64,000 nt of DNA from Bacteroidetes bacterium GWA2_32_17 (GTDB lineage Bacteria; Bacteroidota; Bacteroidia; Bacteroidales; GWA2-32-17): the NCBI GenBank assembly GCA_001769035.1, contig MENF01000066.1:2389-66388 (forward strand), written 5' to 3'. The notes under the pieces are model-generated. The model did no database searches and was not told the DNA's origin. It was given only the letters and a program-made list of their open reading frames with translations. The position numbers and the translations under genes were made by a program. Below, piece after piece: positions 40,868 through 59,979 of this stretch (positions are counted from its first letter, which is position 1; each line of letters starts with the position of its first letter).

Positions 40868-40893
40868 GCAACCTTTCTAATAAAATCATGTCT
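40868..40893 (+). promoter_or_regulatory. Putative ECF sigma promoter
   Basis: GCAACC-N16-GTCT, the same spacing as at 44154 and 51706. Confidence 0.55.
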
Positions 40894-40934: not shown

Positions 40935-41780
40935 ATGTTTTATAATATAAAATTTTTAATTTTGGTTTTTAATTGTAATCTTAAAATACATAAAAAAATG
41001 AAACATTTTTATTTTTTAATAATTTCAATGTTCATTGGAATTAACTGTTTTTCTCAAACAGCAACAAATTTTACTTGTAATGATTGTTCAGGAGGTTCAC
41101 ACGATTTGTTTACCGAACTTGATGCAGGTAAAGTTATAGTTTTGTGTTGGGTAATGCCATGCAGTGCTTGTATTCCCGCATCAAAAACTACATACAATGT
41201 TGTAACAAGCTATCAAACAACAAATCCCGACCGTGTTTTTTATTATTTAGTTGATGATTTTGGTGATACTCCATGCAGTTCACTAAATAGTTGGGCAAAT
41301 ACAAACAATATTAGTGAGTCAACTTATTCGAAAAGGTTTGTTAATACTGCAATTAATATGACTGATTATGGTTCAACTGGTATGCCTAAAATTGTTGTTA
41401 TTGGAGGTGCTTCGCACACTGTTTATTACAATGTTAATAGTTCAGTTATTGCAACTAACCTTCAGACAGCAATTGATAACGCATTAGCAGCAACATCGGG
41501 AATTGAAAATAATAATTCCGATTTGTTTAATGTAAGTTTATCGCCTGTTCCATCTAATAACCAGACGACACTTTCTGTTAATTTAAAGTCAATTTCAAAT
41601 GTAAAAGTTGAAATTTACAATGTTGTTGGAAAAAAAGTTTCAGATGTTTATAATAGTCAACTTAAATCGGGCGATAACAAATTAAATATAAATACTTTCG
41701 ATTTTAATAATGGGATGTATTTCGTAAAAGTTAGTGTTGCCGATAAAATCAAAACAATTAAATTAATTGTTTCTGAATAA
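40935..41780 (+). CDS. Thioredoxin-like (CxxC) domain + T9SS CTD
   Basis: ATNFT, WVMPCSAC, GMPK; CTD. Real start probably MKHF at ~40998. Confidence 0.75.
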   Translation: MFYNIKFLILVFNCNLKIHKKMKHFYFLIISMFIGINCFSQTATNFTCNDCSGGSHDLFTELDAGKVIVLCWVMPCSACIPASKTTYNVVTSYQTTNPDRVFYYLVDDFGDTPCSSLNSWANTNNISESTYSKRFVNTAINMTDYGSTGMPKIVVIGGASHTVYYNVNSSVIATNLQTAIDNALAATSGIENNNSDLFNVSLSPVPSNNQTTLSVNLKSISNVKVEIYNVVGKKVSDVYNSQLKSGDNKLNINTFDFNNGMYFVKVSVADKIKTIKLIVSE

Positions 41781-41959: not shown

Positions 41960-42985
41960 ATGAGAATTCATTGTGTTTTAGTAATGCTTTGTGTTTTTCT
42001 TTCTATAAAATCATTTTCGCAATGTTGTGGAGGTGGAGGCGGCAGCCCTATTGCTGGTGGTGCATCGCAAGGTGTGCTGCTCGAAAAACAAATGGAGGTT
42101 AATTCCAATTTTCAGTATATTAATACAAATAAATTTTATTCGGGAAATAAACCGGATACTAATTTTTTAGATAATTATAACAGTAAGTACGTATATACAC
42201 GTTTAGCTTATGGTTTATCAAAGAATTTAACTTTTTCATTAGAAACTGGCTATTGGCTCAATAAAACACAAATTGGCTTACATAAAGTTGATACAAATTC
42301 TTCAACCGGAATTGGTGATTTAATTATTTTTCCAAGATACGATATTTTCAAAATCACTAAAAACTCAAAGCAAACAGAATTAACTGTTGGTTTGGGCTTT
42401 AAAATACCACTTGGCTCATATAATGATTCAAGCAAACATATCTTAATTCAAGAGCCTGTTCTTCCAAATGAGATTTATTATAGTACGAAAACACTTTCAG
42501 TTCAAACATCTTCAGGTGCTCATGATCTTATTTTTTACTTATTCTTTTATAGAGGAAATAACATAAAAAAATTAAACTTTTTTGCTAATGCAATTTATAT
42601 TAAAAAAGGTTGGAATCCTATTGGCGAAAAAATTGGCGATTATGCCAGCGTAGGACTTTTTGCAAGTAAAACATTTTTAAAAAAATTGGGAATAACAATG
42701 CAATTAAAAGGCGAATGGGCTGATAAAATGCAGCTTAACAAAACTGTATATTTAAACTCATATCCAAATTATAATCCCGAAGCCACAGGATTTAGAAAAG
42801 TTTTTATTGTACCGCAAGTAAGTTATACAGTTAAAAAATTAACATTTTATTTGTTGTCTGAAATTCCTTTATATCAAGAAATGATAAAAACACAAATTAG
42901 CTCACAATATCAAATGGCGTTTGGTATTTCGTATAGATTTTATCTTGCTGACCCTACAAAAAAATCGGAAAGCGAATCAAAATAA
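41960..42985 (+). CDS. Putative outer-membrane beta-barrel transporter with N-terminal Cys pair
   Basis: Signal peptide then QCCGGG, GIGDL, GFKIPLG, GISYRF. Confidence 0.7.
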   Translation: MRIHCVLVMLCVFLSIKSFSQCCGGGGGSPIAGGASQGVLLEKQMEVNSNFQYINTNKFYSGNKPDTNFLDNYNSKYVYTRLAYGLSKNLTFSLETGYWLNKTQIGLHKVDTNSSTGIGDLIIFPRYDIFKITKNSKQTELTVGLGFKIPLGSYNDSSKHILIQEPVLPNEIYYSTKTLSVQTSSGAHDLIFYLFFYRGNNIKKLNFFANAIYIKKGWNPIGEKIGDYASVGLFASKTFLKKLGITMQLKGEWADKMQLNKTVYLNSYPNYNPEATGFRKVFIVPQVSYTVKKLTFYLLSEIPLYQEMIKTQISSQYQMAFGISYRFYLADPTKKSESESK

Positions 42986-42994
42986 AATGAATAT

Positions 42995-44095
42995 TTAGTT
43001 TAATACAAATTTCCCGGAACCATAAAAATATTTGTCGCTTATAATTTTGTAGGAGTATATTCCATCAGGAAGTTCATTCCTTTTGATAGTATTATTATCT
43101 GAAGAAATATTTTTAATTATTAATATTTGTCTGCCTGTTACATCATAAATAAACATTGAGATATTTTTCTCGTTATTAATGCTTTCTATATTTATTTTAG
43201 CTTCATTATTAAATGGATTAGGTACTATATTGAAATCATTTTTGTCGTTAAAAAGATTATTAATTCCTGCATCATTTCTTTTCATATAAGCAAAACGAGC
43301 TATTTGGTAATCGCTTCTTTTTTCTAATATGCCTTTATTTATTTGCATTACAGGAAATCCAAGCCCCTTTGTGTACCACTTATAGTAATAATTATCAGGC
43401 GTATAATTAATTAATTCTCCAATTCCATTTACATATAAACTATCCCATACAGTTTCTGTTGTATGAATTCTAACCACAGGATAAACATCAATTAAAGTAT
43501 TTAATTCGCCCCATGAATCAGCAATATTTGTATCAATAATATTAGTAACTAAAACTGAATCTGTTGATTTTTGAATTACTATTCTTGAACTGTCAATTTT
43601 TGTTTGCCCATACTGTAAAATTGGAAATGTAGTGCGATAATTGTATAAATTATATGCATACGGGTAATTTGATGCATAATAAATCAACCCAGTTGAATCT
43701 TCAATATAATAATCGCGATAACAAATCTCTTTAATAACGTGAGTAATCCAATCGTGTACCCAATAACAGTTCGATTTAAGTGCAATATCTGCTAATGGAA
43801 AAGTTTGAATTGAATCAGGAAAAATCCACCTGACCGAATCTAAAGAGGATGTTGGAGACCCACCCCAGAAATTTAACATACCAAAATCCCAGAAAACATT
43901 TGCTCCAGAATCGCCAGGGAAAAGCGTTAATCCTTGAATACTATCAACCCTGTAGCTAAGTTGAACATCGCCAGGTGCAGGTAAGTCGTTTTGATCTAAA
44001 ATAATTTGGCAGTAAAGAGAAATGTTAAAAGTGAAAAATATCAATAATAATAAAATTATTTTCATAAGGCATAAAGTTTTATTTAACAAAGACAT
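42995..44095 (-). CDS. T9SS cargo of unknown function, paralog of 50593
   Basis: DLP..GD, GANVFWDF, ADSWG, YYYKWY; PNP CTD. Confidence 0.8.
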   Translation of the reverse strand: MSLLNKTLCLMKIILLLLIFFTFNISLYCQIILDQNDLPAPGDVQLSYRVDSIQGLTLFPGDSGANVFWDFGMLNFWGGSPTSSLDSVRWIFPDSIQTFPLADIALKSNCYWVHDWITHVIKEICYRDYYIEDSTGLIYYASNYPYAYNLYNYRTTFPILQYGQTKIDSSRIVIQKSTDSVLVTNIIDTNIADSWGELNTLIDVYPVVRIHTTETVWDSLYVNGIGELINYTPDNYYYKWYTKGLGFPVMQINKGILEKRSDYQIARFAYMKRNDAGINNLFNDKNDFNIVPNPFNNEAKINIESINNEKNISMFIYDVTGRQILIIKNISSDNNTIKRNELPDGIYSYKIISDKYFYGSGKFVLN

Positions 44096-44153
44096 TATAA
44101 TTGTTAAAAAAGTTGCAAATAATTTAAAAATATTTAAAAAAATAAATTCTCAT

Positions 44154-44179
44154 GCAACCTTTTTCAAGAATTGTAGTCT
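44154..44179 (+). promoter_or_regulatory. Putative ECF sigma promoter
   Basis: GCAACC-N16-GTCT. Confidence 0.6.
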
Positions 44180-44250
44180 AATTAAAAAATAAAAGTATTT
44201 TATTTTGAAAGTGCATATTTTATTTATATATTTGTTTAATATTTGAAATA

Positions 44251-44616
44251 TTGAAAATAACATTAAACATATTAATTTCTGTTTTATTCCTTTTGTCAAC
44301 ATCTGGAATATTTATTTCTGAACATTACTGTGGAAATAATTTAGTTTCTGTTTCATTTTTTTCAAATGCAAAGAAATGTTGCGATGACAGTTGCCCATTC
44401 TGCAAAAATGTAAATCACACATATAAAGTAAAAACAAAAGTTGTTAAATCGAACAATATAAGTTTAGAAATTAATAATAATATTATTTCATTATTTAATT
44501 TGTCTTATATTGAACAATTGCTTTTATGTAATATCTATGTAAGCAATATTGTTAAAATTAATCCGCCTCCCGGCAAGTTTTCAACAACTGCTTATTTGTC
44601 TAAATTAAGACTATGA
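44251..44616 (+). CDS. HYC_CC_PP-type small Cys-rich protein, copy 1
   Basis: Hydrophobic N-terminus, HYC, CCDDSCPFC, PPP near the C-terminus. Confidence 0.8.
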   Translation: MKITLNILISVLFLLSTSGIFISEHYCGNNLVSVSFFSNAKKCCDDSCPFCKNVNHTYKVKTKVVKSNNISLEINNNIISLFNLSYIEQLLLCNIYVSNIVKINPPPGKFSTTAYLSKLRL

Positions 44617-44622
44617 TTTATT

Positions 44623-44645
44623 GCTGTTGTAATTCTTACAACAGC
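44623..44645 (+). promoter_or_regulatory. Hairpin immediately after leader ORF copy 1
   Basis: GCTGTTGTAA-TTC-TTACAACAGC. Confidence 0.55.
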
Positions 44646-44714
44646 TAAAATCTATTTTCCCATTTCTTAAACTATTGTCTAATTATTAATAATTTCAATT
44701 AAAAATAAATAAAA

Positions 44715-46841
44715 ATGAAAACTTTAAATAATATTTTTCAATTTAATAAAATAAAAAAAACTTTTTTATTTTCTCTGCTATTTGTTTTTTTGTTTGTAAA
44801 TGGTTTTTCTCAAACTCATTTATGTTCAGAATATGAAGCAGATAAAAAAGCAGAATTAGAAAACCCCGATTTCTTAAAAGCCAAAACTGAACTTGATAAT
44901 TTCACAAATCAATATGAGCAAAGCAATCAAAAATCAGAAGTAATATATATTATTCCTGTTGTATTTCATGTTTTACACAATTATGGTTCAGAAAACATCT
45001 CAAAAGCACAAATTTTAGATGCTGTTAGAATTATTAATGAGGACTTTAATAAATTAAATGCCGACACTTCTCAAATAATTCCAGAATTTCAGGGAATTGC
45101 TGCAAATTCTCATATTGAATTTCGTTTGGCTCAAATTGACCCTTATGGAAATTGTACCGATGGTATTGTTCGAACTGTAACAAGCGAAACTAATAATGCA
45201 GGCGATGATACAAAACTACTCTCACCATCATGGAACAGAACAAAATATTTAAATATTTGGACAGCAGCAAACCTCGAATCTGGTGCTGCAGGTTATTCTT
45301 TTTACCCATCAAGTGTTTCTGGTGCATGGGGTGTAAGTATTGATGGAGTTATGATTCTTGATTCTTATGTTGGAAGTATTGGAACAGGTAATTATACTTA
45401 TGCCCGTGCTTTATCGCACGAAATTGGGCATTATCTGAATTTAGCACATACATGGGGAAATAGCAACACACCTGGTCTTCTATCAAATTGTAGTATTGAT
45501 GACGGGGTAAGTGATACACCAAACACAATTGGACATACAAGTTGCAATTTATATTCTAATACTTGCGGTTTTCTCGACAATGTTCAAAACTATATGGATT
45601 ATTCGTACTGCGATAGAATGTTTACCGAAGGACAAAAAACAAGGATGAGAGCAGCTTTAAATAGCTCTGTTAGTGGCAGAAACAACCTTTGGACTGCTTC
45701 AAATTTAATAGCTACCGGTACAAATGATGGTTACATTGCTCAAGTTTGTGCTCCTATTCCTGATTTTATTTATTATAATTCATTCGGATGTAATAGTATG
45801 TCAGTTCAATATACTGATTTAACGTGGAATGTTGATTCCGGATATACTATTTTATGGTCATTCCCAGGTGGAACTCCATCTACATCAAATATTTCTAACC
45901 CTAATGTTTCGTATTCAAATACAGGTGATTATGGTTCGACATTAACTGTTTCAAATATAAGTGGAAGTAATCAGATTACTAAATCTAACATAATTCATAT
46001 TCAAGATCCTACTACTGGCGAAGGCATTCCATGGGTCGAAAGTTTTGAAAATAGTTCTTTCCCAATCAATTTAACCGACTCGTCAAAAAATTGGTTAATA
46101 TTAGGGAATAGCAATTTTAATTGGTCGCAAGTTAATGTTGCATACAATGGTTTATCATCTGTAAAAGTACCAAATGAAAACAATACTTTAAATCAAACTT
46201 CAGAGTTATATTCTCCAAATATTATTACATCGTCAAACAGCCATAATAATTTCTTTACTTTTAGGGTAGCTTATGCTCAAAAATTATCAACAGATGTTGA
46301 CAAATTACAGGTTTATATTTCATCTAATTGTGGTTTAACTTGGTATCCACGATTCACAAAATCTGGTGCAGAACTCGCAACTAATGGAGGAACGCTTGTA
46401 AGCTCTTTTAGCCCTGATACTTCGCAATGGAGAAAAGAAACAATTAGTCTTGGCTTATATTCAAATAAACCTTATATTAGAGTAAAGTTTCTTGTTACTT
46501 CTGGCAATGGAAATAGCATATATTTAGATGATATTAATTTAGACCAATTAACCAACATAGATAATTTGCCACTTTCTGTTTCAAATAATTTAAATATTTT
46601 TCCAAACCCTGTAAATAAGGAATCAATATTAGTTTTTGATTTAAGCAAGACATCTGAAGTTGAACTTTCACTTTCAAATGTTTTAGGACAAAAGTTAACT
46701 TTTTACAAAAATAATTTTATTGCTGGTCCTTATGATTTGAATGTAAATGAACTTTTTAAAACAGATTTGCAACAAGGAATATATTTTCTTTCGGTTACCA
46801 TTAATGGCATATCGGAAACATTAAAACTGGTAAAGGAATAA
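44715..46841 (+). CDS. M43 zinc metalloprotease + PKD + T9SS CTD
   Basis: IPVVFHV, HEIGHYLNLAHTW, NYMDY, MFTEGQ. Confidence 0.92.
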   Translation: MKTLNNIFQFNKIKKTFLFSLLFVFLFVNGFSQTHLCSEYEADKKAELENPDFLKAKTELDNFTNQYEQSNQKSEVIYIIPVVFHVLHNYGSENISKAQILDAVRIINEDFNKLNADTSQIIPEFQGIAANSHIEFRLAQIDPYGNCTDGIVRTVTSETNNAGDDTKLLSPSWNRTKYLNIWTAANLESGAAGYSFYPSSVSGAWGVSIDGVMILDSYVGSIGTGNYTYARALSHEIGHYLNLAHTWGNSNTPGLLSNCSIDDGVSDTPNTIGHTSCNLYSNTCGFLDNVQNYMDYSYCDRMFTEGQKTRMRAALNSSVSGRNNLWTASNLIATGTNDGYIAQVCAPIPDFIYYNSFGCNSMSVQYTDLTWNVDSGYTILWSFPGGTPSTSNISNPNVSYSNTGDYGSTLTVSNISGSNQITKSNIIHIQDPTTGEGIPWVESFENSSFPINLTDSSKNWLILGNSNFNWSQVNVAYNGLSSVKVPNENNTLNQTSELYSPNIITSSNSHNNFFTFRVAYAQKLSTDVDKLQVYISSNCGLTWYPRFTKSGAELATNGGTLVSSFSPDTSQWRKETISLGLYSNKPYIRVKFLVTSGNGNSIYLDDINLDQLTNIDNLPLSVSNNLNIFPNPVNKESILVFDLSKTSEVELSLSNVLGQKLTFYKNNFIAGPYDLNVNELFKTDLQQGIYFLSVTINGISETLKLVKE

Positions 46842-46980
46842 TTATATTTAAAAAAATATCGAACAAGGATTAATGAATAATTGTTACACAACCTGACAGG
46901 TTACGAAGTTCCTGTCAGGTTGTGTATTTAAGAAATATAAGTAATTATAATGAAACTTAACTGAAATATAACAAATGAAA
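46840..46980 (+). repeat. Fourth, partial copy of the ATGAAA-associated element
   Basis: Reverse complement of 7402-7535, including the ACCTGACAGG palindrome; ends AAATATAACAA-ATGAAA. Confidence 0.75.
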
Positions 46981-47016
46981 TTCATCCTATAAAATAAATT
47001 TTAAATAAAAATCATC

Positions 47017-50000
47017 ATGAAAAATTTAAGCTTTTTAATTATCACTTTCTTTATTGTAAGTGTGTCGTTTTCTCAAACTTATAACCCTAATTTTTTAGAT
47101 GGGCGAATAATGTTTAAATTGAAAACTAATGTGCATACTAAAGAAATAGTAAAACGTACAGATTTAAACAGTTATAGCAAAGTTGAAAATCTGGCAAACT
47201 ATCCCGAATTAGCTCTGGCATTGAAAGACTTTTCAATAACAAAATTCGAAAGACCAAGCTTTTATACGGGCAGAGCAGAATTAATGAAAATTTACCGGAT
47301 TTGTTTTTCTGATTTTTCAGATATAAAACAAATTATTAAAAAATTAAAACAGTTGAATTTTATCGAATTTGCCGAAAAAGAACCTATTTATAAAACAGAT
47401 TTTATTCCTAACGATACATATTATACAGGTACTTATAAATGGTATCATACTTTAGTTAATTCAGAGCAAGCTTGGGATATTAGTTTAGGAAGCAATTCAG
47501 TTAAAGTTGCTATTGTTGATAATGCAGTTTTTGCTAGTCATTCTGATTTAACTACATTTAAACAATTCGATGTTGCCGATAACGATAACAATGCAACTCC
47601 TCCTATTGTGTATTCTTCCGACCAGGGATGGTCGCATGGTACTCATACTTCAGGATTAGCAACTGCCGATTTAAACAATAGTTTAGGAATAGCTTCTTTA
47701 GGCGGCAATGTTGAATTAATTGCAGTAAAGGCAACTCCAAATAGCGCTTCTTCTGAAAGTATCTGGTACGGATACGATGGAATTCAATGGGCTTGCGAAA
47801 ATGGTGCTAATGTTGTTAGTATGTCTTTTGGCGGAACAACACCAAGCACTTCTACTCAAACATTAATAAATTCATATCCCGAAGTAGTTTTTTTAGCATC
47901 TGCAGGTAACGATGGAAATACAACACCTAATTATCCAGCTGCATACAATAATGTTATTGGTGTTGGCTCTGTTGATGGTAATGACAGCCGTTCAAGTTTC
48001 TCAAATTATAATGGTTCAACACCATTTGTTGATATTGCTTCTCCAGGTGGGTTTACTAATGGAGGTTTAATGAGTACTGTTTATTCAAGTTCAGGAAATA
48101 CCTATGGACTAATGAGTGGAACGTCAATGTCATGTCCTTTTGCAGCAGGACTTGTTGGTTTAATGTTAAGTGTTAACCCAACTCTTACACCTACTCAAAT
48201 CGAAAATTGTTTGATATCTTCCGGAGTAAACATTAACCAAAATGTTGGTCCAAGAATAGACGCTTATGCTGCAATGCAATGCGTTCAGGCAACTTTAACC
48301 GGCGACCCATTTGTAAATTTTTGGGGTGCTCCTGTATCAATTTACGAAGGACAAACTGTTACTTATTACGACAACTCAGCAGGTGGTGGAAATCCTATTA
48401 CAAATTGGCAATGGTTGTTCCCCGGAGGTACTCCTTCGTCTTATACCGGTCAAACTCCACCAGTTATAACATATTCCGTATCAGGAATTTATGATGTAAC
48501 TATAACAGTTACTAATTCTCAAAGTTCTCAAACACTCACACGAACTGGTTATATTAACGTTAGTATGCAACCTTATGGTGCATGGCTCGAAGAAGCATCG
48601 GGATTTGCAACTGCATCACGAGGAATTAATTTTCTTTCGGTAGTTGACCAAAATACAATTTGGGCTACAGCTTACGATGGTTCTGGTACAGCAGCAAATA
48701 TTCAGGAATTTACTAAAACTACTAATGGTGGAACTACTTGGACACCTGGAACTATTAATATTGGTAATACTGCTTTAGGAATATCAATGATTCATGCTTT
48801 TGATGCCAATACTGCCTGGTTAGCTGCATACCCTAATGCTGCCGGACAAACAGGTGGAGTATGGAAAACTACCAACGGTGGTACTACATGGATTCGACAA
48901 AATACAGCATTATATAATAATGCCAGTTCATTTACAAATGTTGTTTATTTTTGGGATGCTAATACTGGCTTTTGTATGGGTGATCCTATTAATGGCGAAT
49001 ATGAAGTTTATACAACAACAAATGGTGGTACTACATGGACACCTATTTCGGCTGCAAATATACCAAATCCATTATCTGGCGAATATGGTTATACCCGGCA
49101 AATTGAAGTTGTTGGTAACGATGTTTGGTTTACTACTAACAAAGGCAGAATTTACCATTCTACTGATAAAGGTTTAACATTTCAGGTATTTCAAACACCA
49201 ATTTCTGATTTTGGTTCTGTTGTAACACCATCTTTCACATCTTCAAACACTGGCATTTTTGTAGTCAGCGACAGTGTATATAAAACTGTTAATGGAGGTG
49301 CAACATGGAACCTGTTAAATACAACTGGTTCAGTATTCTCAACCGGATTATGCTATATTGTAGGCACTGATACTGTTTTTTCAACTGGTGCAGCTGCTGG
49401 AACTTCTGGTTCTTCATATAGCGTTGATGGTGGAATAAACTGGAATATTGTTGATAATGCCCAGCATACATCTGTTGAGTTTATTAACTCCTTAATTGGA
49501 TGGTCGGGTTGGTTTAATTTAAATGCTAGTTCTCAAGGTATGTGGAAATGGTATAAAGTAAACACAAGTTTGTTTGTTGATTTCTCGGGCTCACCTGTTA
49601 ATGCCTGTGTAGGTGATACTGTTAATTTTACTGATTTAACAACCGGCGGAACACCTATATCATGGCAATGGAGTTTTCCTGGCGGCACACCTTCAACATC
49701 TACATTGCAAAACCCTTCAGTAGTTTATAGTGCAGTTGGTTCGTACAATGTTTCTTTAACTGTAGATGATGGTAATGGACCTGCTTCAAAACAAATTACA
49801 GGATATATAAATGTTCTTACTACTCCAGCCCAGCCAGGACCTATTTTGGGTAATGCATTTCCATGCCAGGGAGCAAATATAACATATTCTGTAACAAATG
49901 TTCCTAATGTGTTTTATTCATGGACAGTACCAACTGGATGGACAGGAACAAGTACCACTAATTCGTTATTAGCAACAGTTGACTCAACTGCTGGTCAAGT

Positions 50001-50544
50001 AAAAGTTACAGCAGATAATGTTTGCGGAAGTAGTCCACAACGTACTAAATATATAACACCTACAAAATTACCCGTTGCCGGTTTTACTTATATTGATAAT
50101 CAGGAAACAGTTAGTTTTACAAGTACATCTACCAATGCTACTTCATACAGTTGGAATTTTGGCGATTTATCTACCGGTAATACTGCTAATCCTACACATA
50201 CTTATACTAATGTTGGAAACTTTTTAGTAACACTTATTGTAACTAATTCATGTGGTACCGATACAATTACACAAGTTATTAATATAACTATAATTGGAAT
50301 TAATGAAGTAATTATTAATAATATTAATATTTACCCTAATCCTGTTAAGGATATGTTATTTATTGATTTTAATAATTCTAATTTAATTAATTCTGAAATT
50401 AACATTACCGATATTCTTGGTAATATTGTTATTAATAATAAAATTGATAAACTAAATTATAGTATTGATTTATCAAAACTTAATAAAGGAATGTACTTTA
50501 TTAATATTAATAATGTAAATACATATAAATTTGTTAAGGAATAA
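47017..50544 (+). CDS. S8 subtilase + PKD + BNR propeller + T9SS CTD
   Basis: VAIVD, HGTH, AGND, GTSMS catalytic motifs; TTNGGTTW repeats; PKD domains. Confidence 0.92.
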   Translation: MKNLSFLIITFFIVSVSFSQTYNPNFLDGRIMFKLKTNVHTKEIVKRTDLNSYSKVENLANYPELALALKDFSITKFERPSFYTGRAELMKIYRICFSDFSDIKQIIKKLKQLNFIEFAEKEPIYKTDFIPNDTYYTGTYKWYHTLVNSEQAWDISLGSNSVKVAIVDNAVFASHSDLTTFKQFDVADNDNNATPPIVYSSDQGWSHGTHTSGLATADLNNSLGIASLGGNVELIAVKATPNSASSESIWYGYDGIQWACENGANVVSMSFGGTTPSTSTQTLINSYPEVVFLASAGNDGNTTPNYPAAYNNVIGVGSVDGNDSRSSFSNYNGSTPFVDIASPGGFTNGGLMSTVYSSSGNTYGLMSGTSMSCPFAAGLVGLMLSVNPTLTPTQIENCLISSGVNINQNVGPRIDAYAAMQCVQATLTGDPFVNFWGAPVSIYEGQTVTYYDNSAGGGNPITNWQWLFPGGTPSSYTGQTPPVITYSVSGIYDVTITVTNSQSSQTLTRTGYINVSMQPYGAWLEEASGFATASRGINFLSVVDQNTIWATAYDGSGTAANIQEFTKTTNGGTTWTPGTINIGNTALGISMIHAFDANTAWLAAYPNAAGQTGGVWKTTNGGTTWIRQNTALYNNASSFTNVVYFWDANTGFCMGDPINGEYEVYTTTNGGTTWTPISAANIPNPLSGEYGYTRQIEVVGNDVWFTTNKGRIYHSTDKGLTFQVFQTPISDFGSVVTPSFTSSNTGIFVVSDSVYKTVNGGATWNLLNTTGSVFSTGLCYIVGTDTVFSTGAAAGTSGSSYSVDGGINWNIVDNAQHTSVEFINSLIGWSGWFNLNASSQGMWKWYKVNTSLFVDFSGSPVNACVGDTVNFTDLTTGGTPISWQWSFPGGTPSTSTLQNPSVVYSAVGSYNVSLTVDDGNGPASKQITGYINVLTTPAQPGPILGNAFPCQGANITYSVTNVPNVFYSWTVPTGWTGTSTTNSLLATVDSTAGQVKVTADNVCGSSPQRTKYITPTKLPVAGFTYIDNQETVSFTSTSTNATSYSWNFGDLSTGNTANPTHTYTNVGNFLVTLIVTNSCGTDTITQVINITIIGINEVIINNINIYPNPVKDMLFIDFNNSNLINSEINITDILGNIVINNKIDKLNYSIDLSKLNKGMYFININNVNTYKFVKE

Positions 50545-50564
50545 TAAATTTTAATATAATATTT

Positions 50565-50604
50565 AAACACATTCATCGTTTATTTTCGATGAATGTGTTT
50601 TTTT
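50565..50604 (+). terminator. Intrinsic terminator
   Basis: AAACACATTCATCG...CGATGAATGTGTTT followed by a T-run. Confidence 0.65.
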
Positions 50605-51690
50605 AAAATGAATAATTATCTAAAAATATTTTTAGCCATTTATTTGTTAATTCACAACTTTAAGTGTGATAGTCAAATTGTTATGGATACTACTGATTTG
50701 CCTGATATTGGAACAATTCAAGTTTCTGTAAAAGTTGATAGTTTACAGGGAAGCACTTTAAATCCAGGAAATTCGGGTGAAAATTTAATTTGGGATTTTA
50801 GTAATTTATTACCATGTTGCGGTACAGTTGAAACATCAACCGATACAATTAAGTGGCTAAATCCACAAACTACACCAAACGGTCAAAATTTTATTTCTTC
50901 AAATTTATCTGATGCAATGAATTGTTATACTTACCATTCGCATGTTACACATAATGATGAATTAGTTTGTAATTACTTTTATTACATTAAAAATACCGAC
51001 GGTTTATTTATAAATGGTATTGCCGAACAAGGAAATGTTGTTATTTATCAAAACTATAATTTTTTCCCATTAATATTATATGGCGATTCAACCGAAGATA
51101 ATGCAAGAATAACTAAAATTAACGACGACACATTATTCTCAACTTTTTTTTCGTACAAATCAATTGCCGATTCATGGGGTACAATAACCACACCAGCAGG
51201 ACAATTTAATGCTATTCGTATTTTTACAACAGAATCTGTTTTCGATAGTATTTATATAAACGGTTCAGATTTTCAAACAAATGTTTCAAATAATAATTAT
51301 TATTACAGATGGTATTCAAAAGGCATCAAATCTCCTGTTTTAGAAATTTATAAAGGGCTTTGGCACCTCAAAAAAACAAATCAGCAAAAAACAATTTACA
51401 GTATTGATAATAATACAAGCATTAATTCTCAAATATTACAAAAAAACTTGTTTAAGATATACCCGAATCCTGTATTTAATACTTTAAATATTTCGATTAT
51501 CAATCAAAAAATTATAGATAATTACAATTTAATAATATATAATAATTTAGGATGCGAAGTACTAAAAATTAATAATATTTATAACAATCAGTCTATTGAT
51601 TTAGAACAAGTTCTTGTAAAAGGTTTTTATTATTTTATTATCTTTAATGATGGTAAAATAATATTTTCTGATAAGTTGATTAAATTATAA
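50593..51690 (+). CDS. T9SS cargo with Cys/His loop, paralog of 42995
   Basis: DLPDIG, GENLIWDF, CYTYHSHVTHNDELVC, ADSWG; likely start 50608. Confidence 0.8.
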   Translation: MCFFKMNNYLKIFLAIYLLIHNFKCDSQIVMDTTDLPDIGTIQVSVKVDSLQGSTLNPGNSGENLIWDFSNLLPCCGTVETSTDTIKWLNPQTTPNGQNFISSNLSDAMNCYTYHSHVTHNDELVCNYFYYIKNTDGLFINGIAEQGNVVIYQNYNFFPLILYGDSTEDNARITKINDDTLFSTFFSYKSIADSWGTITTPAGQFNAIRIFTTESVFDSIYINGSDFQTNVSNNNYYYRWYSKGIKSPVLEIYKGLWHLKKTNQQKTIYSIDNNTSINSQILQKNLFKIYPNPVFNTLNISIINQKIIDNYNLIIYNNLGCEVLKINNIYNNQSIDLEQVLVKGFYYFIIFNDGKIIFSDKLIKL

Positions 51691-51705
51691 TTTTTATTTA
51701 AACAT

Positions 51706-51731
51706 TAAACCTTTTTCTAAAAAAGTAGTCT
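51706..51731 (+). promoter_or_regulatory. Putative ECF sigma promoter
   Basis: TAAACC-N16-GTCT. Confidence 0.55.
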
Positions 51732-51754
51732 TACAAAAAAAATGAATTAGTTTA

Positions 51755-52120
51755 ATGAAAATACTTTCGAGCATATTACTTTCTTTAATTATAATTATAT
51801 CAACAAGTGGTATTTTTGTTTCGGAGCATTTTTGTAGTAATAAATTAATGTCGGTTTCTTTTTTCACTAATGCTAAAAAATGTTGTGATAATAATTGCCC
51901 ATATTGTAAAAACATTAATCATTCTTATAAAGTAAAAACAAAAGTTATTCAATCGCAAACAATTAATTTAAAACCTAACAACAGTGTAACAGATTTGTTC
52001 TTACTTCCTTCAAATAAAGTATTTACATATATTACTATTCCTGATTTTTCTTTAGAAATAGTTATTCCTCCCCTCATAAAAGAGAACCTTAATATCCTTT
52101 TTTCAATTTTTAGATTATGA
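51755..52120 (+). CDS. HYC_CC_PP-type small Cys-rich protein, copy 2
   Basis: HFC, CCDNNCPYC, IPP, FRL end; paralog of 44251. Confidence 0.82.
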   Translation: MKILSSILLSLIIIISTSGIFVSEHFCSNKLMSVSFFTNAKKCCDNNCPYCKNINHSYKVKTKVIQSQTINLKPNNSVTDLFLLPSNKVFTYITIPDFSLEIVIPPLIKENLNILFSIFRL

Positions 52121-52127
52121 TTATTGT

Positions 52128-52152
52128 AATTTGTTAAATACTTTAACAAATT
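52128..52152 (+). promoter_or_regulatory. Hairpin immediately after leader ORF copy 2
   Basis: AATTTGTTAAA-TAC-TTTAACAAATT. Confidence 0.5.
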
Positions 52153-52164
52153 TAACTTTGTTAT

Positions 52165-52635
52165 TTGTTTTCATTATGTAAAACAAATAACTTATTATCA
52201 ATAATAATAATTTTAAAAATGAAAAAAATGAAAAACAAAAAATTTTTTCGCAAAAACATTTTAACGTCAATATTATTGACATTATTAATGGTTTCATTTG
52301 GTACCGCTTATTCACAATGTGGCGGAGGGCATAATCATAGTAAAAGCAGTTCAACAAAAAGTGTTGATAACAATGATGTAAATGCAATAAAAGATAGTAC
52401 AAAAACATATACCTGCTCAATGCACTCCGAAGTAATTTCCGACAAACCGGGTAAATGTCCAAAATGTGGAATGGAATTGATTTTAAAAAATTCAGAATCA
52501 ACTCAAAATATGAATTTGGGTTGTATGGGTATGATGCATGGCGAAAAAGGAAAACATAAGGGAATGATGTACGTTGCAGGCGGTGTAATTATGGTGGCTA
52601 TGATGACGGTATTTATGTTCTTAAGAATTAATTAA
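52165..52635 (+). CDS. Heavy-metal-binding-domain protein with Met-rich region and C-terminal TM helix
   Basis: YTCSMHSEV...GKCPKCGMEL; real start probably ~52219. Confidence 0.82.
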   Translation: MFSLCKTNNLLSIIIILKMKKMKNKKFFRKNILTSILLTLLMVSFGTAYSQCGGGHNHSKSSSTKSVDNNDVNAIKDSTKTYTCSMHSEVISDKPGKCPKCGMELILKNSESTQNMNLGCMGMMHGEKGKHKGMMYVAGGVIMVAMMTVFMFLRIN

Positions 52636-52673
52636 TTTATTTTTAAACTAAATTCACAAAAAAAAATAATATT

Positions 52674-53150
52674 ATGGTAAACACATTTCATCCTTTGTTT
52701 GTGCATTTCCCTATAGCATTATTAATTGTTTCGGGAATTATTGCACTTATTGATTTGCTAAAAGGCAATGAGCAATTAAAAAAAATAATATTATGGAATT
52801 TAATATTTGCATTAATAAGTTTTATTTTTACTATTAGTTCAGGTTTCTTTGATGCAAACGCAATTCCGCATAACGAAACTATACATAAAATAATGGAAGT
52901 TCACGAAAAAATCGGCATATTGTTATTTGCAATAACTTTCATTTTAACAATGTGGCTCATAATAAGAATTTCAAAAATGACTAAATTAGAAAACTTATTA
53001 TTTGTAATTTTACTTTGGTTCGCAATGGCTTTGGTTAGCTATAATGGTTACCTTGGTGGTAAAATGGTTTACGAAAATGGTGCCGGTATAAAGCCAATGC
53101 AAAATTCCTTTATATTACAGGAAGCCGAAAAGCACGAACATGAGCATTAA
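52674..53150 (+). CDS. DUF2231 membrane protein
   Basis: HPLFVHFPIAL, GYLGGKMVY. Confidence 0.88.
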   Translation: MVNTFHPLFVHFPIALLIVSGIIALIDLLKGNEQLKKIILWNLIFALISFIFTISSGFFDANAIPHNETIHKIMEVHEKIGILLFAITFILTMWLIIRISKMTKLENLLFVILLWFAMALVSYNGYLGGKMVYENGAGIKPMQNSFILQEAEKHEHEH

Positions 53151-53167
53151 ATAATAAATTAACAATA

Positions 53168-53208
53168 ACCTCAAAGTCCTCTCCTTTGGAGAGGATTTAG
53201 GTGAGGTC
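53168..53208. repeat. Intergenic CCTCTCCTTTGGAGAGG REP
   Basis: Same family as the in-frame inserts at 19102, 21000 and 25194. Confidence 0.85.
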
Positions 53209-53225
53209 AATAAAAAAAATAAAAA

Positions 53226-53612
53226 ATGAATTACTATTTTAATAAAACCGTAAAAATGTCCTTCGAGGATGCAGAAATTAAAGTAATTGAAGCATTAAAA
53301 TCAGAAGGTTTTGGTGTATTAACCGAAATTGATGTTCAGGCAACATTAAAGAAAAAGCTTGATGTTGATTTTAGGAGGTACAAAATACTTGGTGCCTGTA
53401 ATCCGCCTTTTGCATACAAAGCATTGCAGGCAGAAGATAAAATTGGTCTTTTACTGCCCTGCAACATTGTTATTCAAGAAAAATCTGACAAAACAATTGA
53501 AGTTGCAGCAATAAATCCTCTTGCATCAATGGAAGTAGTAGGTAACGAAAAGTTAACTGAAATAGCAAAAGAAGTTCAATCTAAATTAAATAACGTTATT
53601 AAATCAATTTAA
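53226..53612 (+). CDS. DUF302 protein
   Basis: GFGVLTEIDV, ILGACNP, LLPCN. Confidence 0.92.
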   Translation: MNYYFNKTVKMSFEDAEIKVIEALKSEGFGVLTEIDVQATLKKKLDVDFRRYKILGACNPPFAYKALQAEDKIGLLLPCNIVIQEKSDKTIEVAAINPLASMEVVGNEKLTEIAKEVQSKLNNVIKSI

Positions 53613-53624
53613 ATTTTTAAAATC

Positions 53625-53888
53625 ATGAAAGCAAAAAACAGTTTTCTAATTATTATTGCTTTAGTATTAACTTTAGCATTAAGTTCTTGCAGTACACAAG
53701 AAGAAAAAAGTACAGAACAAAGTTCAAATTCCGAAAAAGTTACTTACACTTGCCCAATGCATCCCGAAGTTACCAGCGATATAGCAGACAAATGCCCAAA
53801 GTGCGGAATGGAATTAGTACAGAATGAAGCCCATGAACACGAAGCCCATGAGCACGATATGGATAATGACACAATGAAAATGGAATAA
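53625..53888 (+). CDS. Heavy-metal-binding lipoprotein
   Basis: LSSC lipobox, YTCPMHPEV...CPKCGM, His/Met tail. Confidence 0.88.
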   Translation: MKAKNSFLIIIALVLTLALSSCSTQEEKSTEQSSNSEKVTYTCPMHPEVTSDIADKCPKCGMELVQNEAHEHEAHEHDMDNDTMKME

Positions 53889-53972
53889 ATGTAATTATTT
53901 AATTGTAACTATTCAAAGTAATATTACTAATATTATAACAATGAGTAGTTACAATTATTAAAAAAAAATATT

Positions 53973-54560
53973 ATGAACGCAAAATCATATTTTAAGGTTA
54001 CGCTAATAATTGTTATTATACAGTTATTTACATCTGCTTTATTGTATAGTCAACACAACCATGGCGGTAGCGTTGGTGACGGTACAGGTCACCAAAACCA
54101 TAGCGCAAGTGCTACTAATAGCACACCTGCTGTAAATAAATTTTCTTCTTTTGGAGGTACAGTAAAAAAAGTTGGAAAATATAATATCGAAATGGTTTTT
54201 CAACCAATGATGAAAACCGACCCTTTAATTTTTTTTCTGATGAATAAAAAAGGCAAACCGGTAAACAACCAGGGAATTACAGGTAAAACAGAATTTACAT
54301 ATTCCGATAATAGTACCGAAACAGCAGTATTGAAGCCAAAAGGTGAAAACGGATTTGTTGCACAGATGAATAAGAAAAATCAGTCATTTATATGCAAACT
54401 GACTTTAAAAATAAATGATGAAAACATTACAGAAAATTTTCATGGCAGCAGTGCCGAAAATGCAATTAGTTATACATGTTCTATGCATCCTGAAATAACA
54501 AATAATAAACATGGAAGTTGCCCTAAATGCGGAATGGAATTAGTAAAAAAAAATGAATAA
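53973..54560 (+). CDS. Exported heavy-metal-binding-domain protein
   Basis: His-rich N-terminus, C-terminal YTCSMHPEI...CPKCGM. Confidence 0.85.
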   Translation: MNAKSYFKVTLIIVIIQLFTSALLYSQHNHGGSVGDGTGHQNHSASATNSTPAVNKFSSFGGTVKKVGKYNIEMVFQPMMKTDPLIFFLMNKKGKPVNNQGITGKTEFTYSDNSTETAVLKPKGENGFVAQMNKKNQSFICKLTLKINDENITENFHGSSAENAISYTCSMHPEITNNKHGSCPKCGMELVKKNE

Positions 54561-54566
54561 AATAAA

Positions 54567-55901
54567 ATGAATGTTTTACCCAAAATAATATTTTATTGGC
54601 TGTTAGCTACTGAAACTATTACTGGATATGCTCAAATATGGCAACCAGTAGGTAATGGTTTCGACAATGCAGTTTTAACTTTATTAAATGATTCTTCTAA
54701 CAACTTACTATATGCTGGCGGTTCTTTCGATACAGCCGATGGTAGTGATTGTAGCAGAATATCAAAATGGAATAATTCATACTGGGATACAATTGGAACA
54801 GGTTTATCAAATGGAAATGTTAACACAATGACAATTTATAACAATATGCTTTATACTGGTGGTTCGTTTACCAATGCTGGAAATAAAATAAGGAGATTTT
54901 TAACTAGATGGAATGGTGTTTCATGGGATTCAATAGCTTTTACAACCAGCAATTGTTTTGTAAATGAAATGCTTGAATACAATGGTGAATTATATGTTGG
55001 CGGAGGTTTCCCTATTGCAGGCGGAATTCAGGTTAACAATATTGCACGATTTGATGGAAGTCAATGGGACTCGGTTGGTGCCGGAACAAATAACAGAATA
55101 TATACTATGGCGATTTATAACAACGAGCTATATATTGGCGGTTGGTTCGATACAGCAGGTGGAATGCCAGCAAATTATATTGCAAAATGGAATGGAATTA
55201 ACTGGTCAAATGTTGGAAATGGAACAAATAACAGAGTTTTTGCTTTGGAAGTTTATAATAACGAGTTATATGTTGGTGGTTTATTCGATACTGTCGGCGG
55301 AGCTTATGTTAATCATTTAGCAAAATGGAACGGAAGTAATTGGTCGGCTGTTGGGAACGGTTTAAATGGGCAGGTAAATACTTTATATTCATATAAAAAC
55401 AATTTATACATAGGTGGCTATTTTACAATTGCCGGCTCAACTAATGCAAATAAAATTGCTGTTTTTGATGGAAATAATTATTTGCCAATGGATAGCGGTT
55501 TTAATGATGCCGTTAGCTCAATTACTTCATATAATAACGAAATTATTGCAGGAGGTTATTTTACTCAGTCTGATGTAAACATTGTTAAATATATTGCAAA
55601 GTGGAAAATTATTGATAATATTGAGAATATAACAAATGATAATGTTGAAGTTATTGCTTATCCTAACCCTTTTCGTGAGAGTACAATATTACAAATAAAT
55701 AATTCTTCAATAACTTATTGCAAAATAAACATATATGATACTTTTGGAAAGAAAGTAAAATTTAATATAATAAAAGAAAAAAATATGTTTGTATTAACTC
55801 GGAGAAATATTCCTAACGGTATTTATTTTTACAAAATTGTTTTTAAAGATAATATTAATAATAAAGTAAATAATTTAATGGGTAAATTAATTGTTCAATA
55901 A
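54567..55901 (+). CDS. Beta-propeller repeat protein + T9SS CTD
   Basis: Repeated LYVGG.F..AG....IAKWNG..W..VG.G units; YPNP CTD. Confidence 0.85.
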   Translation: MNVLPKIIFYWLLATETITGYAQIWQPVGNGFDNAVLTLLNDSSNNLLYAGGSFDTADGSDCSRISKWNNSYWDTIGTGLSNGNVNTMTIYNNMLYTGGSFTNAGNKIRRFLTRWNGVSWDSIAFTTSNCFVNEMLEYNGELYVGGGFPIAGGIQVNNIARFDGSQWDSVGAGTNNRIYTMAIYNNELYIGGWFDTAGGMPANYIAKWNGINWSNVGNGTNNRVFALEVYNNELYVGGLFDTVGGAYVNHLAKWNGSNWSAVGNGLNGQVNTLYSYKNNLYIGGYFTIAGSTNANKIAVFDGNNYLPMDSGFNDAVSSITSYNNEIIAGGYFTQSDVNIVKYIAKWKIIDNIENITNDNVEVIAYPNPFRESTILQINNSSITYCKINIYDTFGKKVKFNIIKEKNMFVLTRRNIPNGIYFYKIVFKDNINNKVNNLMGKLIVQ

Positions 55902-55941
55902 TTTTAATAAATAAATTGGTATAATAATAACAAAGTAAATA

Positions 55942-58900: not shown

Positions 58901-59970
58901 ATTTGGAAATTAAGTTAAATCGAGAGGATATTTCGAGATATGGAATGAAAGTTAGTGATATTCAGGATGTGTTGCAAAGTGCAGTAGGCGGGATGGTTTT
59001 AGCAAACACAGTTGAAGGACGTGAACGTTTTCCAATTCGTGTAAGATATGCTCGTGAATTACGTACTACACCTGAAGATTTGAAAAATATTTTAGTGCCT
59101 TCGATGTCGGGAGTTCAAATACCTTTAGGGCAATTGGCAGATATAACATATACTCGAGGACCACAAATGATTCGTAGCGAAAATACTTTTTTAAACGGTT
59201 ATGTTATTTTCGATAAACAAACAGATATTGCTGAGGTTGATGTTGTTGAAAAAGCCGATGAATATATTAAAAGTAAAATAAAATCGGGTGAATTAGTTTT
59301 ATCTAAAGGAGTTTCGTATCAATTTGCAGGTAATTACGAGCAACAGTTAAGAGCTACAAAAAAACTTCTATTGGTTATACCTATTAGTCTGGGAATAATA
59401 TTCTTATTGTTATTTTTTCAGTTTAAAACAATTACTGCATCTTCAATTCATTTTTCGGGTGTATTTGTAGCATTTGCAGGTGGTTTTATGATGATTTGGT
59501 TATACTCACAACCATGGTTTTTAAATTTTTCGGTATCTGGTGTCAATATGAGAGATTTATTTCAAATACATACCATTAATTTGAGCGTTGCTGTTTGGGT
59601 TGGATTTATTTCGCTTTTCGGAATTGCTACTAATGATGGAGTAATTATGGGAACATATATTCATCAGGTTTTTGAAGATAAAAAACCAAATACTATAATT
59701 GCTGTTAGAGAAGCTGTTGTTGAAGCCGGTAAAAAAAGAGTTCGTCCTGCATTAATGACCGCTGCCTGTGCTATTATTGCTTTACTACCGGTTTTAACTT
59801 CTACAGGAAAGGGGTCTGATATAATGGTACCAATTGCAATTCCTACTTTTGGCGGAATGATTATTCAAATGATGACAATTTTTGTTGTTCCTGTATTGCA
59901 ATGTGTTTGGCGTGAAGGTGCTATTAAAAGACAACTGAAAAAAGAACAAACAAAGACTTCTGTAATTTAA
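55942..59970 (+). CDS. cusA: CusA/CzcA-family heavy-metal RND permease
   Basis: VDAIPDIGDNQ, LGPDAT, GIAIAIGVMVD, RVRPALMT; internal AT-rich insertion. Confidence 0.88.
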   Translation: MLKFLIKYFLENRFVSILLLLIFIIWGLVSSPFDWNLGFLPHNPIAVDAIPDIGDNQQIIATEWMGRNPKDIEDQITYPLSSALLGIPGIKTIRSTSMFGMSFIYIIFKDEVEFYWSRSRILEKLNSLPPSTLPAGVQPTLGPDATALGQIFWYTLEGRDEKTGKPAGGWDPQELRTIQDYYVKYALATADGVSEVASVGGYVKEYQVDINPDAMKSFKVTVMDIMEAVKKSNLDIGAETIELNKVEYVIRGLGYIKTLDDLKNAVITERNNVPVRIKDVAEVSFGPATRRGGLDKSGSEAAGAVVVARYGSNPLAVINNVKNKIKEVSVGLPSKKLADGTVSKVTIVPFYDRTDLIKETIGTLESALSHETLISVLVIIILLLNLRASFVVSFLLPIAVLMAFIAMKLFHIDANIVALSGIAIAIGVMVDMGIVDVENVTRHMEMPGNNNLKGEKLIKLIYDANIEVRAAVTVALATTIVSFLPVFTMEAAEGKLFQPLAFTKTFALLSSYILGIVVLPTLVYFLYSISFDKKTISRYWNICLIVIATCLIIFWQNWIAISLILISINNLLEFKWTESWKKYVNLINILIVSLVVVYFLSYEWLPMGAHNSLLINFLFVIGIVIIILTPLILITHFYERILNWCLRNRWKFFMIPIFTVSLGIIIWLGFNKSFGFISTGIEKLGWNVKQTSLWQKAQSTFPGLGNEFMPALDEGSYLLMPTSMPHAGIEKNIEYVRTLDKRLNSIPEVDVSVGKWGRVNSALDPAPVQMFENTINYKPEYILSNEGHRMRFKVDENENYLIDINKVKEQITLDYSNNKSNIKVISLENKTSETEIEFDKIKEIKFNKENIEFIVLVNNNWLVVQNYRANNILKFIFKNFKIFLINDNNGEYFRQWRKEIKSPDDIWNEIVNVTNIPGLTSAPKLQPIQARLVMLSTGMRAPMGLKVYGPDLETIEKAGLQFENILKEIPDIKVSSVFYDRAVGAPYLEIKLNREDISRYGMKVSDIQDVLQSAVGGMVLANTVEGRERFPIRVRYARELRTTPEDLKNILVPSMSGVQIPLGQLADITYTRGPQMIRSENTFLNGYVIFDKQTDIAEVDVVEKADEYIKSKIKSGELVLSKGVSYQFAGNYEQQLRATKKLLLVIPISLGIIFLLLFFQFKTITASSIHFSGVFVAFAGGFMMIWLYSQPWFLNFSVSGVNMRDLFQIHTINLSVAVWVGFISLFGIATNDGVIMGTYIHQVFEDKKPNTIIAVREAVVEAGKKRVRPALMTAACAIIALLPVLTSTGKGSDIMVPIAIPTFGGMIIQMMTIFVVPVLQCVWREGAIKRQLKKEQTKTSVI

Positions 59971-59979
59971 ATTATTGTT

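Follow-up and report, generated by a model that had tools for sequence, protein, structure and literature searches.

How might a short, exported, cysteine-rich protein encoded at the head of an operon govern the genes that follow it? The question is raised by a 64,000-nt stretch of the Bacteroidetes bacterium GWA2_32_17 genome (GCA_001769035.1, contig MENF01000066.1, positions 2,389–66,388 of the forward strand; hereafter the window), which contains two 121-residue open reading frames (ORFs) of the HYC_CC_PP family, one (copy 1) ahead of secreted proteases and the other (copy 2) ahead of a metal operon. The initial annotation of this locus read both as leaders in which a ribosome stalled at a Pro-Pro motif governs a hairpin acting as a transcription attenuator, with the proteases behind copy 1 under metal control. 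We find that HYC_CC_PP is the first gene of heavy-metal operons across Bacteroidota, and that a conserved RNA structure links the end of the leader to the start of the downstream gene, family-wide.

Two HYC_CC_PP paralogs in the window

Copy 1 (44251–44616, + strand) starts with TTG and copy 2 (51755–52120, + strand) with ATG; both end in TGA. They score 40 and 36.7 bits, respectively, against the NCBIfam model NF047658 (HYC_CC_PP) and, together with a third genomic copy (30.3 bits), pass its curated cut-off of 28 bits. Copies 1 and 2 are paralogous (44 of 66 residues identical over positions 17–82), with C-terminal tails that diverge. The motifs that give the family its name (H-Y/F-C, CC and PP) and the N-terminal hydrophobic segment are all present in both, the first two motifs in the form EH[YF]C and KCCD-x2-CP-x-C (equivalent to CC-x3-C-x2-C). 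The pair is thus as first described except for the position of PP, which had been placed about 13 codons before the stop; the PP of copy 2 has 15 residues after it and the PPP of copy 1 has 14. A local Pfam scan of both leader ORFs gave zero family matches, and database relatives of copy 2 bear the precomputed label PF26622, a model outside the Pfam set scanned.

At the DNA level, the similarity between copies 1 and 2 spans from a shared promoter motif (see below) to about codon 100 and fades in the tail and spacer; the 5′ region of copy 1 contains a 48-nt insertion relative to copy 2. Database relatives are of two types, copy-1 (P0005) and copy-2 (P0002, P0003), with the tail particular to each type retained; the copy-1-type ortholog P0005 has PPPGK...YLSKLRL. 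The duplication is therefore old, and both copies have been maintained. The third genomic copy lies on another contig (C231) ahead of a TonB-dependent receptor and carries the promoter motif AAACCTTTTTC-N10-GGTCTAA.

HYC_CC_PP is the first gene of heavy-metal operons

A hidden Markov model (HMM) search detected HYC_CC_PP in 116 of the 401 Bacteroidota genomes sampled; within the order of the window organism, 62 of 151 genomes carry it. None of 14 control genomes gave a match, and the genomes of the same genus and the same family as the window organism had no copy. A literature search for the family name returned no matches. Of 123 loci fetched, 122 yielded members, 123 in all, which form the family set analyzed below. 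In 108 of them, an ORF of at least 100 residues in the same direction begins 40–200 nt downstream, with a median spacer of ~97 nt. Downstream neighbours were scanned at 115 loci, a set that excludes both copies of the window and five loci that are probably TonB-linked. Transporters of the ACR_tran (CusA-type) family account for 50 of them, HMA proteins for 25, TonB receptors for 13 and HMBD proteins for 5, the remainder being DUF3347 (2), AraC (2), MbnP (1), OEP (1), a propeller (1) and proteins with no family (15). Peptidases are absent from these 115 neighbours.

A TAnnTTTG box, which we take to be the −7 element of the main Bacteroidetes promoter type, occurs within 42 nt of the start in 75 of the 123 members, mostly 12–16 nt away. 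This position suggests transcripts with very short 5′ leaders, or nearly none, with the HYC_CC_PP gene first in its unit.

Across 122 sequences, H25, C27, C43, C48 and P106 are each at least 90% conserved and C51 is invariant. PP stands within the last 24 residues in 106 of the 123 members, preceded by S or A in 66 of these 106. The last CC and PP are 52–57 residues apart in 87/106, and PP is followed to the C-terminal end by 15–16 residues in 57/106, 12 in 16/106 and 14 in 12/106. The final positions (n = 122) are likewise restricted: −3 is F in 88 and Y in 23 (F/Y, 111), −2 is L in 61 and R in 39 (L/R/Y, 120), and −1 is I in 73 (I/L/A, 98). The codons used in this tail are diverse and synonymous across members, indicating that selection acts on the peptide. 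TGA is the stop codon in 73/123 members, compared with 356/2812 ORFs of the window genome (13%) and 15/84 flanking ORFs.

AlphaFold2, run on a 122-row alignment, predicted a helix at residues 2–18 and three strands carrying the His and Cys residues, confident to residue 60 (blocks with a predicted local distance difference test score, pLDDT, above 89), with residues 61–121 mostly coil (pLDDT 56–72). A Foldseek search against the PDB gave no match at E ≤ 0.001.

A helix joins the leader stop codon to the next start

We computed the best pairing between the segment running from the stop codon to +15 and the segment from −30 to +10 of the next start, scoring a duplex as strong at −8 kcal/mol or stronger. 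Strong duplexes were found at 56 of 108 family loci, compared with 8/108, 7/108, 5/83, 15/108, 19/108 and 9/108 in six control windows within the same loci and 6.4% of 636 co-directional gene pairs from the window genome. The mean duplex energy was −7.6 kcal/mol for cognate and −4.3 kcal/mol for non-cognate pairs, and at 40/108 loci the cognate pair was better than all 20 random non-cognate partners. De-duplication at 50% identity left 83 clusters, 39 with a strong duplex (versus 6.2% of non-cognate pairs) and 37 in the best 5%. In 39 of the 56 loci with a strong duplex, the first base of the stop codon is also the first of the 5′ arm. By neighbour, the duplex is strong at 12/16 loci ahead of TonB receptors and 31/46 ahead of ACR_tran transporters.

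At the TonB-linked loci the 5′ strand runs from the stop codon (tgaTTTTAATGTT) and the 3′ strand (AACATTAAAAtca) ends 7–12 nt before the next ATG. The helix encloses one or two hairpins and has compensatory variants (for example, TTTATTTGTT/AACAAATAAA). When a hand-specified 13-pair helix was counted on 11 aligned TonB-linked spacers, 91% of cells were paired, versus 34–49% with the partner slid. Five of the pairs change on both sides, a count reached by 1 of 500 shuffles, with most of the changes contributed by two sequences. RNAalifold predicted no structure on these 11 spacers because the spacer interior does not align.

The window genome contains two examples. The spacer of copy 2 folds as a three-way junction (z −3.8) closed by a helix, P1, whose 5′ strand (52106–52126, + strand) takes in the stop codon with the four codons before it and 6 nt after it, and whose 3′ strand (52199–52220, + strand) extends from −20 to +2 relative to the ATG at 52219. 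Two hairpins, P2 (52128–52152, + strand) and P3 (52160–52191, + strand), form the internal arms. Evaluated over wider windows, the P1 duplex reaches −13.3 kcal/mol, equalled by 1.6% of the 636 background pairs. In copy 3, the sequence right after the stop pairs with the receptor start codon at −10.6 kcal/mol, in the top 5%. A helix extending from the stop codon to the region of the next start points to masked translation initiation, not to the transcription attenuation that had been proposed.

The local hairpins on which that proposal was built are present as described. Copy 1 has a perfect 10-bp stem at 44623–44645, starting 6 nt past the stop, and copy 2 a perfect 11-bp stem at 52128–52152 (P2), starting 7 nt past the stop; a perfect stem of at least 10 bp starting within 15 nt of the stop follows 1.1% of 3470 ORFs in this genome. 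The copy 1 stem is the core of a longer hairpin (44615–44652, + strand), extended by GAUUU/AAAUC from inside the stop codon and followed by UAUUUU. The copy 2 stem contains one G-C pair, and neither hairpin matched in a scan for the intrinsic-terminator consensus. The expectation that such a hairpin would recur in homologs did not hold: none of 36 other loci examined has a perfect local stem longer than 8 bp, and in an initial set of 39 records that length was exceeded by the two window copies alone. Rfam searches returned no relevant matches over window positions 43900–52700 at E ≤ 1, and over 15 homolog loci at the gathering score they returned only a tRNA.

Metagenomes searched for close relatives of copy 2 yielded four loci at 98–100% identity. 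Of three of these variants (L142–L144), one differs by four substitutions, all within the apical part of P2, and two near-identical ones have PL in place of PP. In these two, a 9-nt repeat, ATGAAAAAA, is also missing from the beginning of the HMBD gene that follows.

Relation to known metal-responsive leaders

The closest known proteins with this layout are CutF of Rhodobacter capsulatus (cutFOG operon) and CruR (Bp2923) of Bordetella pertussis, both DUF2946 proteins, and HYC_CC_PP had been likened to such copper leaders. By sequence the two families are separate. PF11162 (DUF2946) matched none of 122 family members at E ≤ 1, and hhalign of HYC_CC_PP against six RAPP-ended DUF2946-like proteins gave a probability of 2.2%, aligning 13 columns of the signal segment. 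RAPP or PPP within a few residues of the C-terminus, a DUF2946 trait, is not found in the window copies, with the 15 and 14 residues that follow PP and PPP. The rest of the DUF2946-like architecture is present, namely a Cys metal motif, an export signal, first position before metal-homeostasis genes and conserved motif spacing; a common architecture is no proof of descent. On these comparisons HYC_CC_PP lies outside DUF2946, as an apparent analogue of CutF and CruR by layout. The layout half of the earlier likening therefore stands (operon-first, exported, Cys-rich, with a Pro tail and a structured spacer), and the DUF2946 half does not.

DUF2946 itself is rare in the phylum. PF11162 was found in 7 of 301 genomes, over the cut-off in 4 and in none of the window genome's class. 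Of seven short DUF2946-like proteins from other classes of the phylum (L178–L184), six end in RAPP plus 2–4 residues and one in RGPP plus 4; their centres are His-rich, not Cys-rich.

CutF, like HYC_CC_PP, is a small exported protein whose gene leads a metal operon and which has a Cys metal motif and, toward the C-terminus, a Pro motif, and in both cases intergenic RNA that a ribosome on the leader must open shields, or in HYC_CC_PP would shield, the next start (PMC9973294; bioRxiv 10.1101/2025.02.05.636593). The two differ in the position of the Pro motif, which in CutF is at the very end and in HYC_CC_PP lies 12–16 residues before it, followed by a conserved hydrophobic tail. They differ also in the RNA, a local stem-loop over the Shine-Dalgarno sequence in CutF and in HYC_CC_PP a helix that begins at the stop codon and bridges the entire spacer, and in the downstream gene, a multicopper oxidase in CutF as opposed to pumps, receptors and HMA proteins.

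CruR is encoded by an upstream ORF (uORF) before a TonB-dependent transporter, an arrangement like that of copy 3 and of 13/115 homologs. Copper at its CXXC motif relieves arrest at an RAPP motif three residues from the end, and Rho then terminates transcription before the transporter gene (PMC9426467). CruR and HYC_CC_PP have in common an N-terminal export signal, a long spacer and a fixed Cys-to-Pro motif spacing (a conserved 45 residues from CXXC to RAPP in CruR, 52–57 residues in HYC_CC_PP; PMC9426467). Unlike that of CruR, the HYC_CC_PP motif is mostly [SA]PP (66/106) and far from the stop, and the associated RNA feature indicates control of translation initiation.

The proposed action of HYC_CC_PP also resembles that of SecM, VemP, MifM and TnaC, in which a chain in the ribosome tunnel sets dwell and the ribosome melts a downstream RNA structure, turning on the next gene (bioRxiv 10.1101/2025.02.05.636593). 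Unlike these arrest peptides, HYC_CC_PP would have an extracytoplasmic metal as its ligand, its tail sequence resembles none of theirs, and arrest is suggested by analogy. TnaC exerts its effect at its own stop codon, and a residue some 12 positions earlier is critical to it.

The idea of CutF-like leaders in Bacteroidota is already in print. The Ozturk 2023 survey, the only work using the term 'CutF-like' among the matches listed, counts 5334 such proteins, 19% of them from Bacteroidota, with neighbours including OEP, ACR_tran, HlyD_D23 and TonB and spacers mostly under 100 nt (PMC9973294). A later survey reports that Cu-related RAPP/RGPP uORFs are missing in Bacteroidota (PMC12992588).

An ECF-type promoter class upstream of T9SS cargo

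The motif AACC-N16-GTCT, ascribed earlier to an extracytoplasmic function (ECF) sigma factor, does stand just upstream of each window copy, at 44156–44179 (+ strand, tgcAACCTTTTTC...GTAGTCTAA) for copy 1 and 51708–51731 (+ strand, ttaAACCTTTTTC...GTAGTCTTA) for copy 2; beyond the motif, both have in common AACCTTTTTC...GTAGTCT. The window contains four matches versus 0.90 expected, a number reached by 2 of 100 shuffles. A third, at 40870–40893 (+ strand), lies 41 nt upstream of an ORF (40935–41780) ending in a type IX secretion system (T9SS) tail. That ORF is followed by one for a Phenol_MetA_deg-like outer-membrane protein (41960–42985) with a mature N-terminus that begins CCGGGGGS.

With a crude ORF mask that counts ~20% of the genome as non-coding, genome-wide matches are intergenic in 24/53 cases for a spacing of N16 and 28/62 for N17, versus 5/47 for N14 and 7/52 for N15. 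The intergenic instances have in common GCAACC...CGTCTTA. Eighteen ORFs downstream of the motif comprise two ECF sigma genes, two with SprB repeats, three with DUF7948, six with no family and one each of peptidase C25, M43 with PKD, T9SS-tail, Ig_7/CHU_C-associated and glycosyltransferase. The two ECF sigma genes preceded by the motif (C169:7055 and C185:1865) compare with 20 ECF sigma matches above the family cut-off in the genome. An ECF-type promoter class is a reasonable reading of this two-block motif, given its fixed spacing, its intergenic enrichment and its position before ECF sigma genes, but the class is general for T9SS cargo, and the GCAACC-N16/17-CGTCTTA set, which stands before many large genes for such cargo, looks like an ECF-driven T9SS cargo regulon. 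Its loci (L124–L141) lie on contigs C23, C25, C46, C63, C150, C154, C167, C169, C171, C185 and C227.

Nine relatives (L037, L038, L042, L049, L057, L060, L072, L073 and L093; 10 matches) carry an element of the AATT[AG]T[AG]TAA type, (GCAACY)TTTTTCAAAATT[AG]T[AG]TAA, 41–73 nt upstream of the start. It resembles AACCTTTTTCAAGAATTGTAGTCTAA of the window and ends in TAA(C/A), not GTCT; it may be a promoter variant or an operator.

Genes downstream of the two copies

The downstream genes given by the initial annotation were borne out for both copies. Copy 2 is followed by a metal operon (52219–63407, + strand) encoding HMBD, DUF2231, DUF302, HMBD and HMBD proteins, a T9SS propeller, and CusA-type resistance-nodulation-division (RND), OEP, CusB-type and HMA proteins. 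The CusA-type RND gene (55942–59970) encodes 1342 residues, ~300 above the family model, and matches to the Pfam and NCBIfam models cover it in several separate pieces, suggestive of a large insertion.

Copy 1 is followed by genes for an M43 metallopeptidase with a PKD domain (44715–46841, + strand), an S8 subtilase with PKD domains (47017–50544, + strand) and a 365-residue protein (50593–51690, + strand), all with T9SS tails. The last is a paralog of a 366-residue T9SS-tailed protein encoded divergently from copy 1 (42995–44095, − strand). The two flanking paralogs are 34% identical, with conserved DLP..G..Q...VDS...PG.SG.N..WDF and a CC pair, and their family matches are only T9SS-tail-related (Por_Secre_tail and weak related models). 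In a second genome (G626), the source of the closest homologs found, both HYC_CC_PP copies are followed by a same-strand homolog of these genes (48–50% identity; L176, L177). This HYC_CC_PP subfamily is repeatedly linked to T9SS cargo, and the 365/366-residue proteins may be its conserved partner. At a further locus (L107), the gene behind the family member encodes a T9SS-tailed protein with an MbnP domain, which again ties the leader family to copper proteins and T9SS export.

Leader control of the M43 and S8 proteases, as first proposed, is weakly supported. A peptidase neighbour is unique to copy 1, with none among the 115 homolog neighbours. The spacer before the M43 gene contains GTCTAA with TTCC 16 nt upstream (44657–44682), which may be a weak promoter of the same ECF-type class. 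A paralogous M43 gene elsewhere in the genome has the full motif and no leader; with the same promoter class driving T9SS cargo, this gene included, the leader need not mediate the protease link. Strong hairpins also follow both protease genes, a perfect 16-bp hairpin between M43 and S8 (~46884–46925) and a 14-bp hairpin at the end of S8 (50565–50600) that overlaps the first codons of the 365-residue ORF as listed (ATG at 50593). The former matched miRNA models on both strands, an effect of its palindromic sequence alone.

Discussion

We consider it on balance probable, by analogy with the proteobacterial systems, that HYC_CC_PP is a CutF/CruR-like leader in which a metal-sensing nascent chain, together with the stop-to-start helix, gates the next gene. 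The membrane-targeted nascent chain would expose its His/Cys metal site outside the cell membrane while the Pro-containing tail is still in the ribosome; by our own estimate, a ruler of ~54 residues would fit the tunnel plus the translocon. Passage or dwell of the ribosome over the last 15 codons and the TGA stop would then set the expression of the gene downstream. The stop codon and the next 10–15 nt would pair with the region just before or over the next start codon, in a helix usually enclosing one or two hairpins and masking initiation, which a ribosome arriving or pausing at the stop would unzip, freeing the start region. With a stall at PP the next gene would stay off; with a pause at the stop it would be switched on. 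Freeing the start region would matter in Bacteroidota, which are said to initiate translation without Shine-Dalgarno pairing. Copy 2, with P1, P2, P3 and the HMBD/Cus operon, would be the full device, and in this genome the three copies would be transcribed from the ECF-type promoter class common to T9SS cargo genes.

A more far-reaching version, in which an independent, non-homologous metal-sensing nascent chain acts through a ribosome at the TGA stop that opens a helix over a start lacking Shine-Dalgarno pairing, and in which the ECF/T9SS wiring makes the M43/S8 cargo metal-responsive, we regard as doubtful.

Several observations weigh against a leader of this kind. PP is missing from the last 24 residues in 17/123 members, and two of the metagenomic copy 2 variants have PL in its place. 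PP lies ~45 nt before the stop, too far for a ribosome stalled there to reach the helix. One architecture precedes both efflux pumps and uptake receptors, which need opposite responses. The confident predicted fold of residues 1–60 fits a stable protein too. The helix signal is weak ahead of HMA (6/22), HMBD (0/3) and other (7/21) neighbours, and the family loci on which the helix statistics rest are related, so that the P-values overstate significance. Among the 123 members, only the three copies of this genome carry the ECF-type motif inside the 130 nt that precede the start, one G626 copy having GCAACC-N16-CGTCTT farther upstream and most other members having the TAnnTTTG box near the start instead. 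Finally, copy 1 has no closing helix to the M43 start (−3.3 kcal/mol, with 81% of background pairs equally strong), making it either a terminator-type variant or a remnant.

Of the other explanations, the one that survives best concerns copy 1 only. Copy 1 could be a duplicated leader that has lost its target, its hairpin a plain terminator and the M43, S8 and 365-residue genes separate T9SS-cargo units of the ECF regulon. We consider this a real possibility, somewhat short of an even chance. It would account for the missing helix, for the TTG start and the 48-nt 5′ insertion, for the strong hairpins that also follow M43 and S8, for a peptidase neighbour unique among 117 members and for a promoter class that drives T9SS cargo genome-wide. 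It sits less easily with the near-invariant residues and tail of copy 1, all intact, with the tail retained by its ortholog P0005, and with a full promoter motif not having been found between 44617 and 44714.

HYC_CC_PP could instead be an ordinary, stable periplasmic protein that binds metal and is anchored in the membrane, such as a chaperone or an accessory subunit of the pump or receptor, with a helix that only couples translation to yield both products at once and no sensing by the nascent chain. This is unlikely in our view. Several points suit it: residues 1–60, with their near-invariant His and Cys, are predicted to fold confidently; the tail is conserved as protein and could be a binding or degradation motif; PP is dispensable in 17/123 members and in population variants; and plain translational coupling would equally need the helix. 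The second half of the protein, however, is low-confidence coil of tightly held length (52–57 residues in 87/106), which suits a ruler better than a domain, and the model matches no solved fold at E ≤ 0.001. The gene is always operon-first with a long structured spacer, the enrichment of TGA would go unexplained, and CutF, with the same layout, is degraded on export (PMC9973294).

Least probable, and quite improbable, is stalling at PP that governs the local hairpin as a transcription attenuator, with M43 and S8 under metal control through copy 1: the rarity of such strong stop-proximal hairpins, both window copies having one and copy 1's being followed by UAUUUU, the 98-nt spacer before M43, in which we saw by eye no match to the Bacteroidetes −7 box, the tie of the subfamily to T9SS-tailed genes in both copies of a second genome, and the orthologs of each copy elsewhere with conserved tails, so that copy 1 has been maintained, all speak for it, but homologs do not keep the local hairpin (no stem above 8 bp at 36 other loci), that of copy 2 is the inner arm of a larger junction and almost all A-U, a ribosome at PP would be ~45 nt away from it, none of 115 homolog neighbours is a peptidase, a −10-like GTCTAA with TTCC precedes M43, whose paralog has the full motif and no leader, and a 16-bp hairpin stands between M43 and S8.

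So far, regulation through the sensing of extracytoplasmic metal by an exported nascent chain has been worked out in two proteobacterial DUF2946 proteins. If HYC_CC_PP does likewise with an unrelated sequence, the principle would be convergent and phylum-wide (116/401 Bacteroidota genomes). The stop-to-start helix offers a concrete, mutable element by which the gating of initiation could be tested in bacteria without Shine-Dalgarno pairing. If the leader mechanism is correct, it would give a role to a named, uncharacterized family ahead of CusA-type pumps and TonB receptors, and would improve how operons and regulons for resistance to metals and their uptake are annotated in Bacteroidota, both environmental and host-associated.

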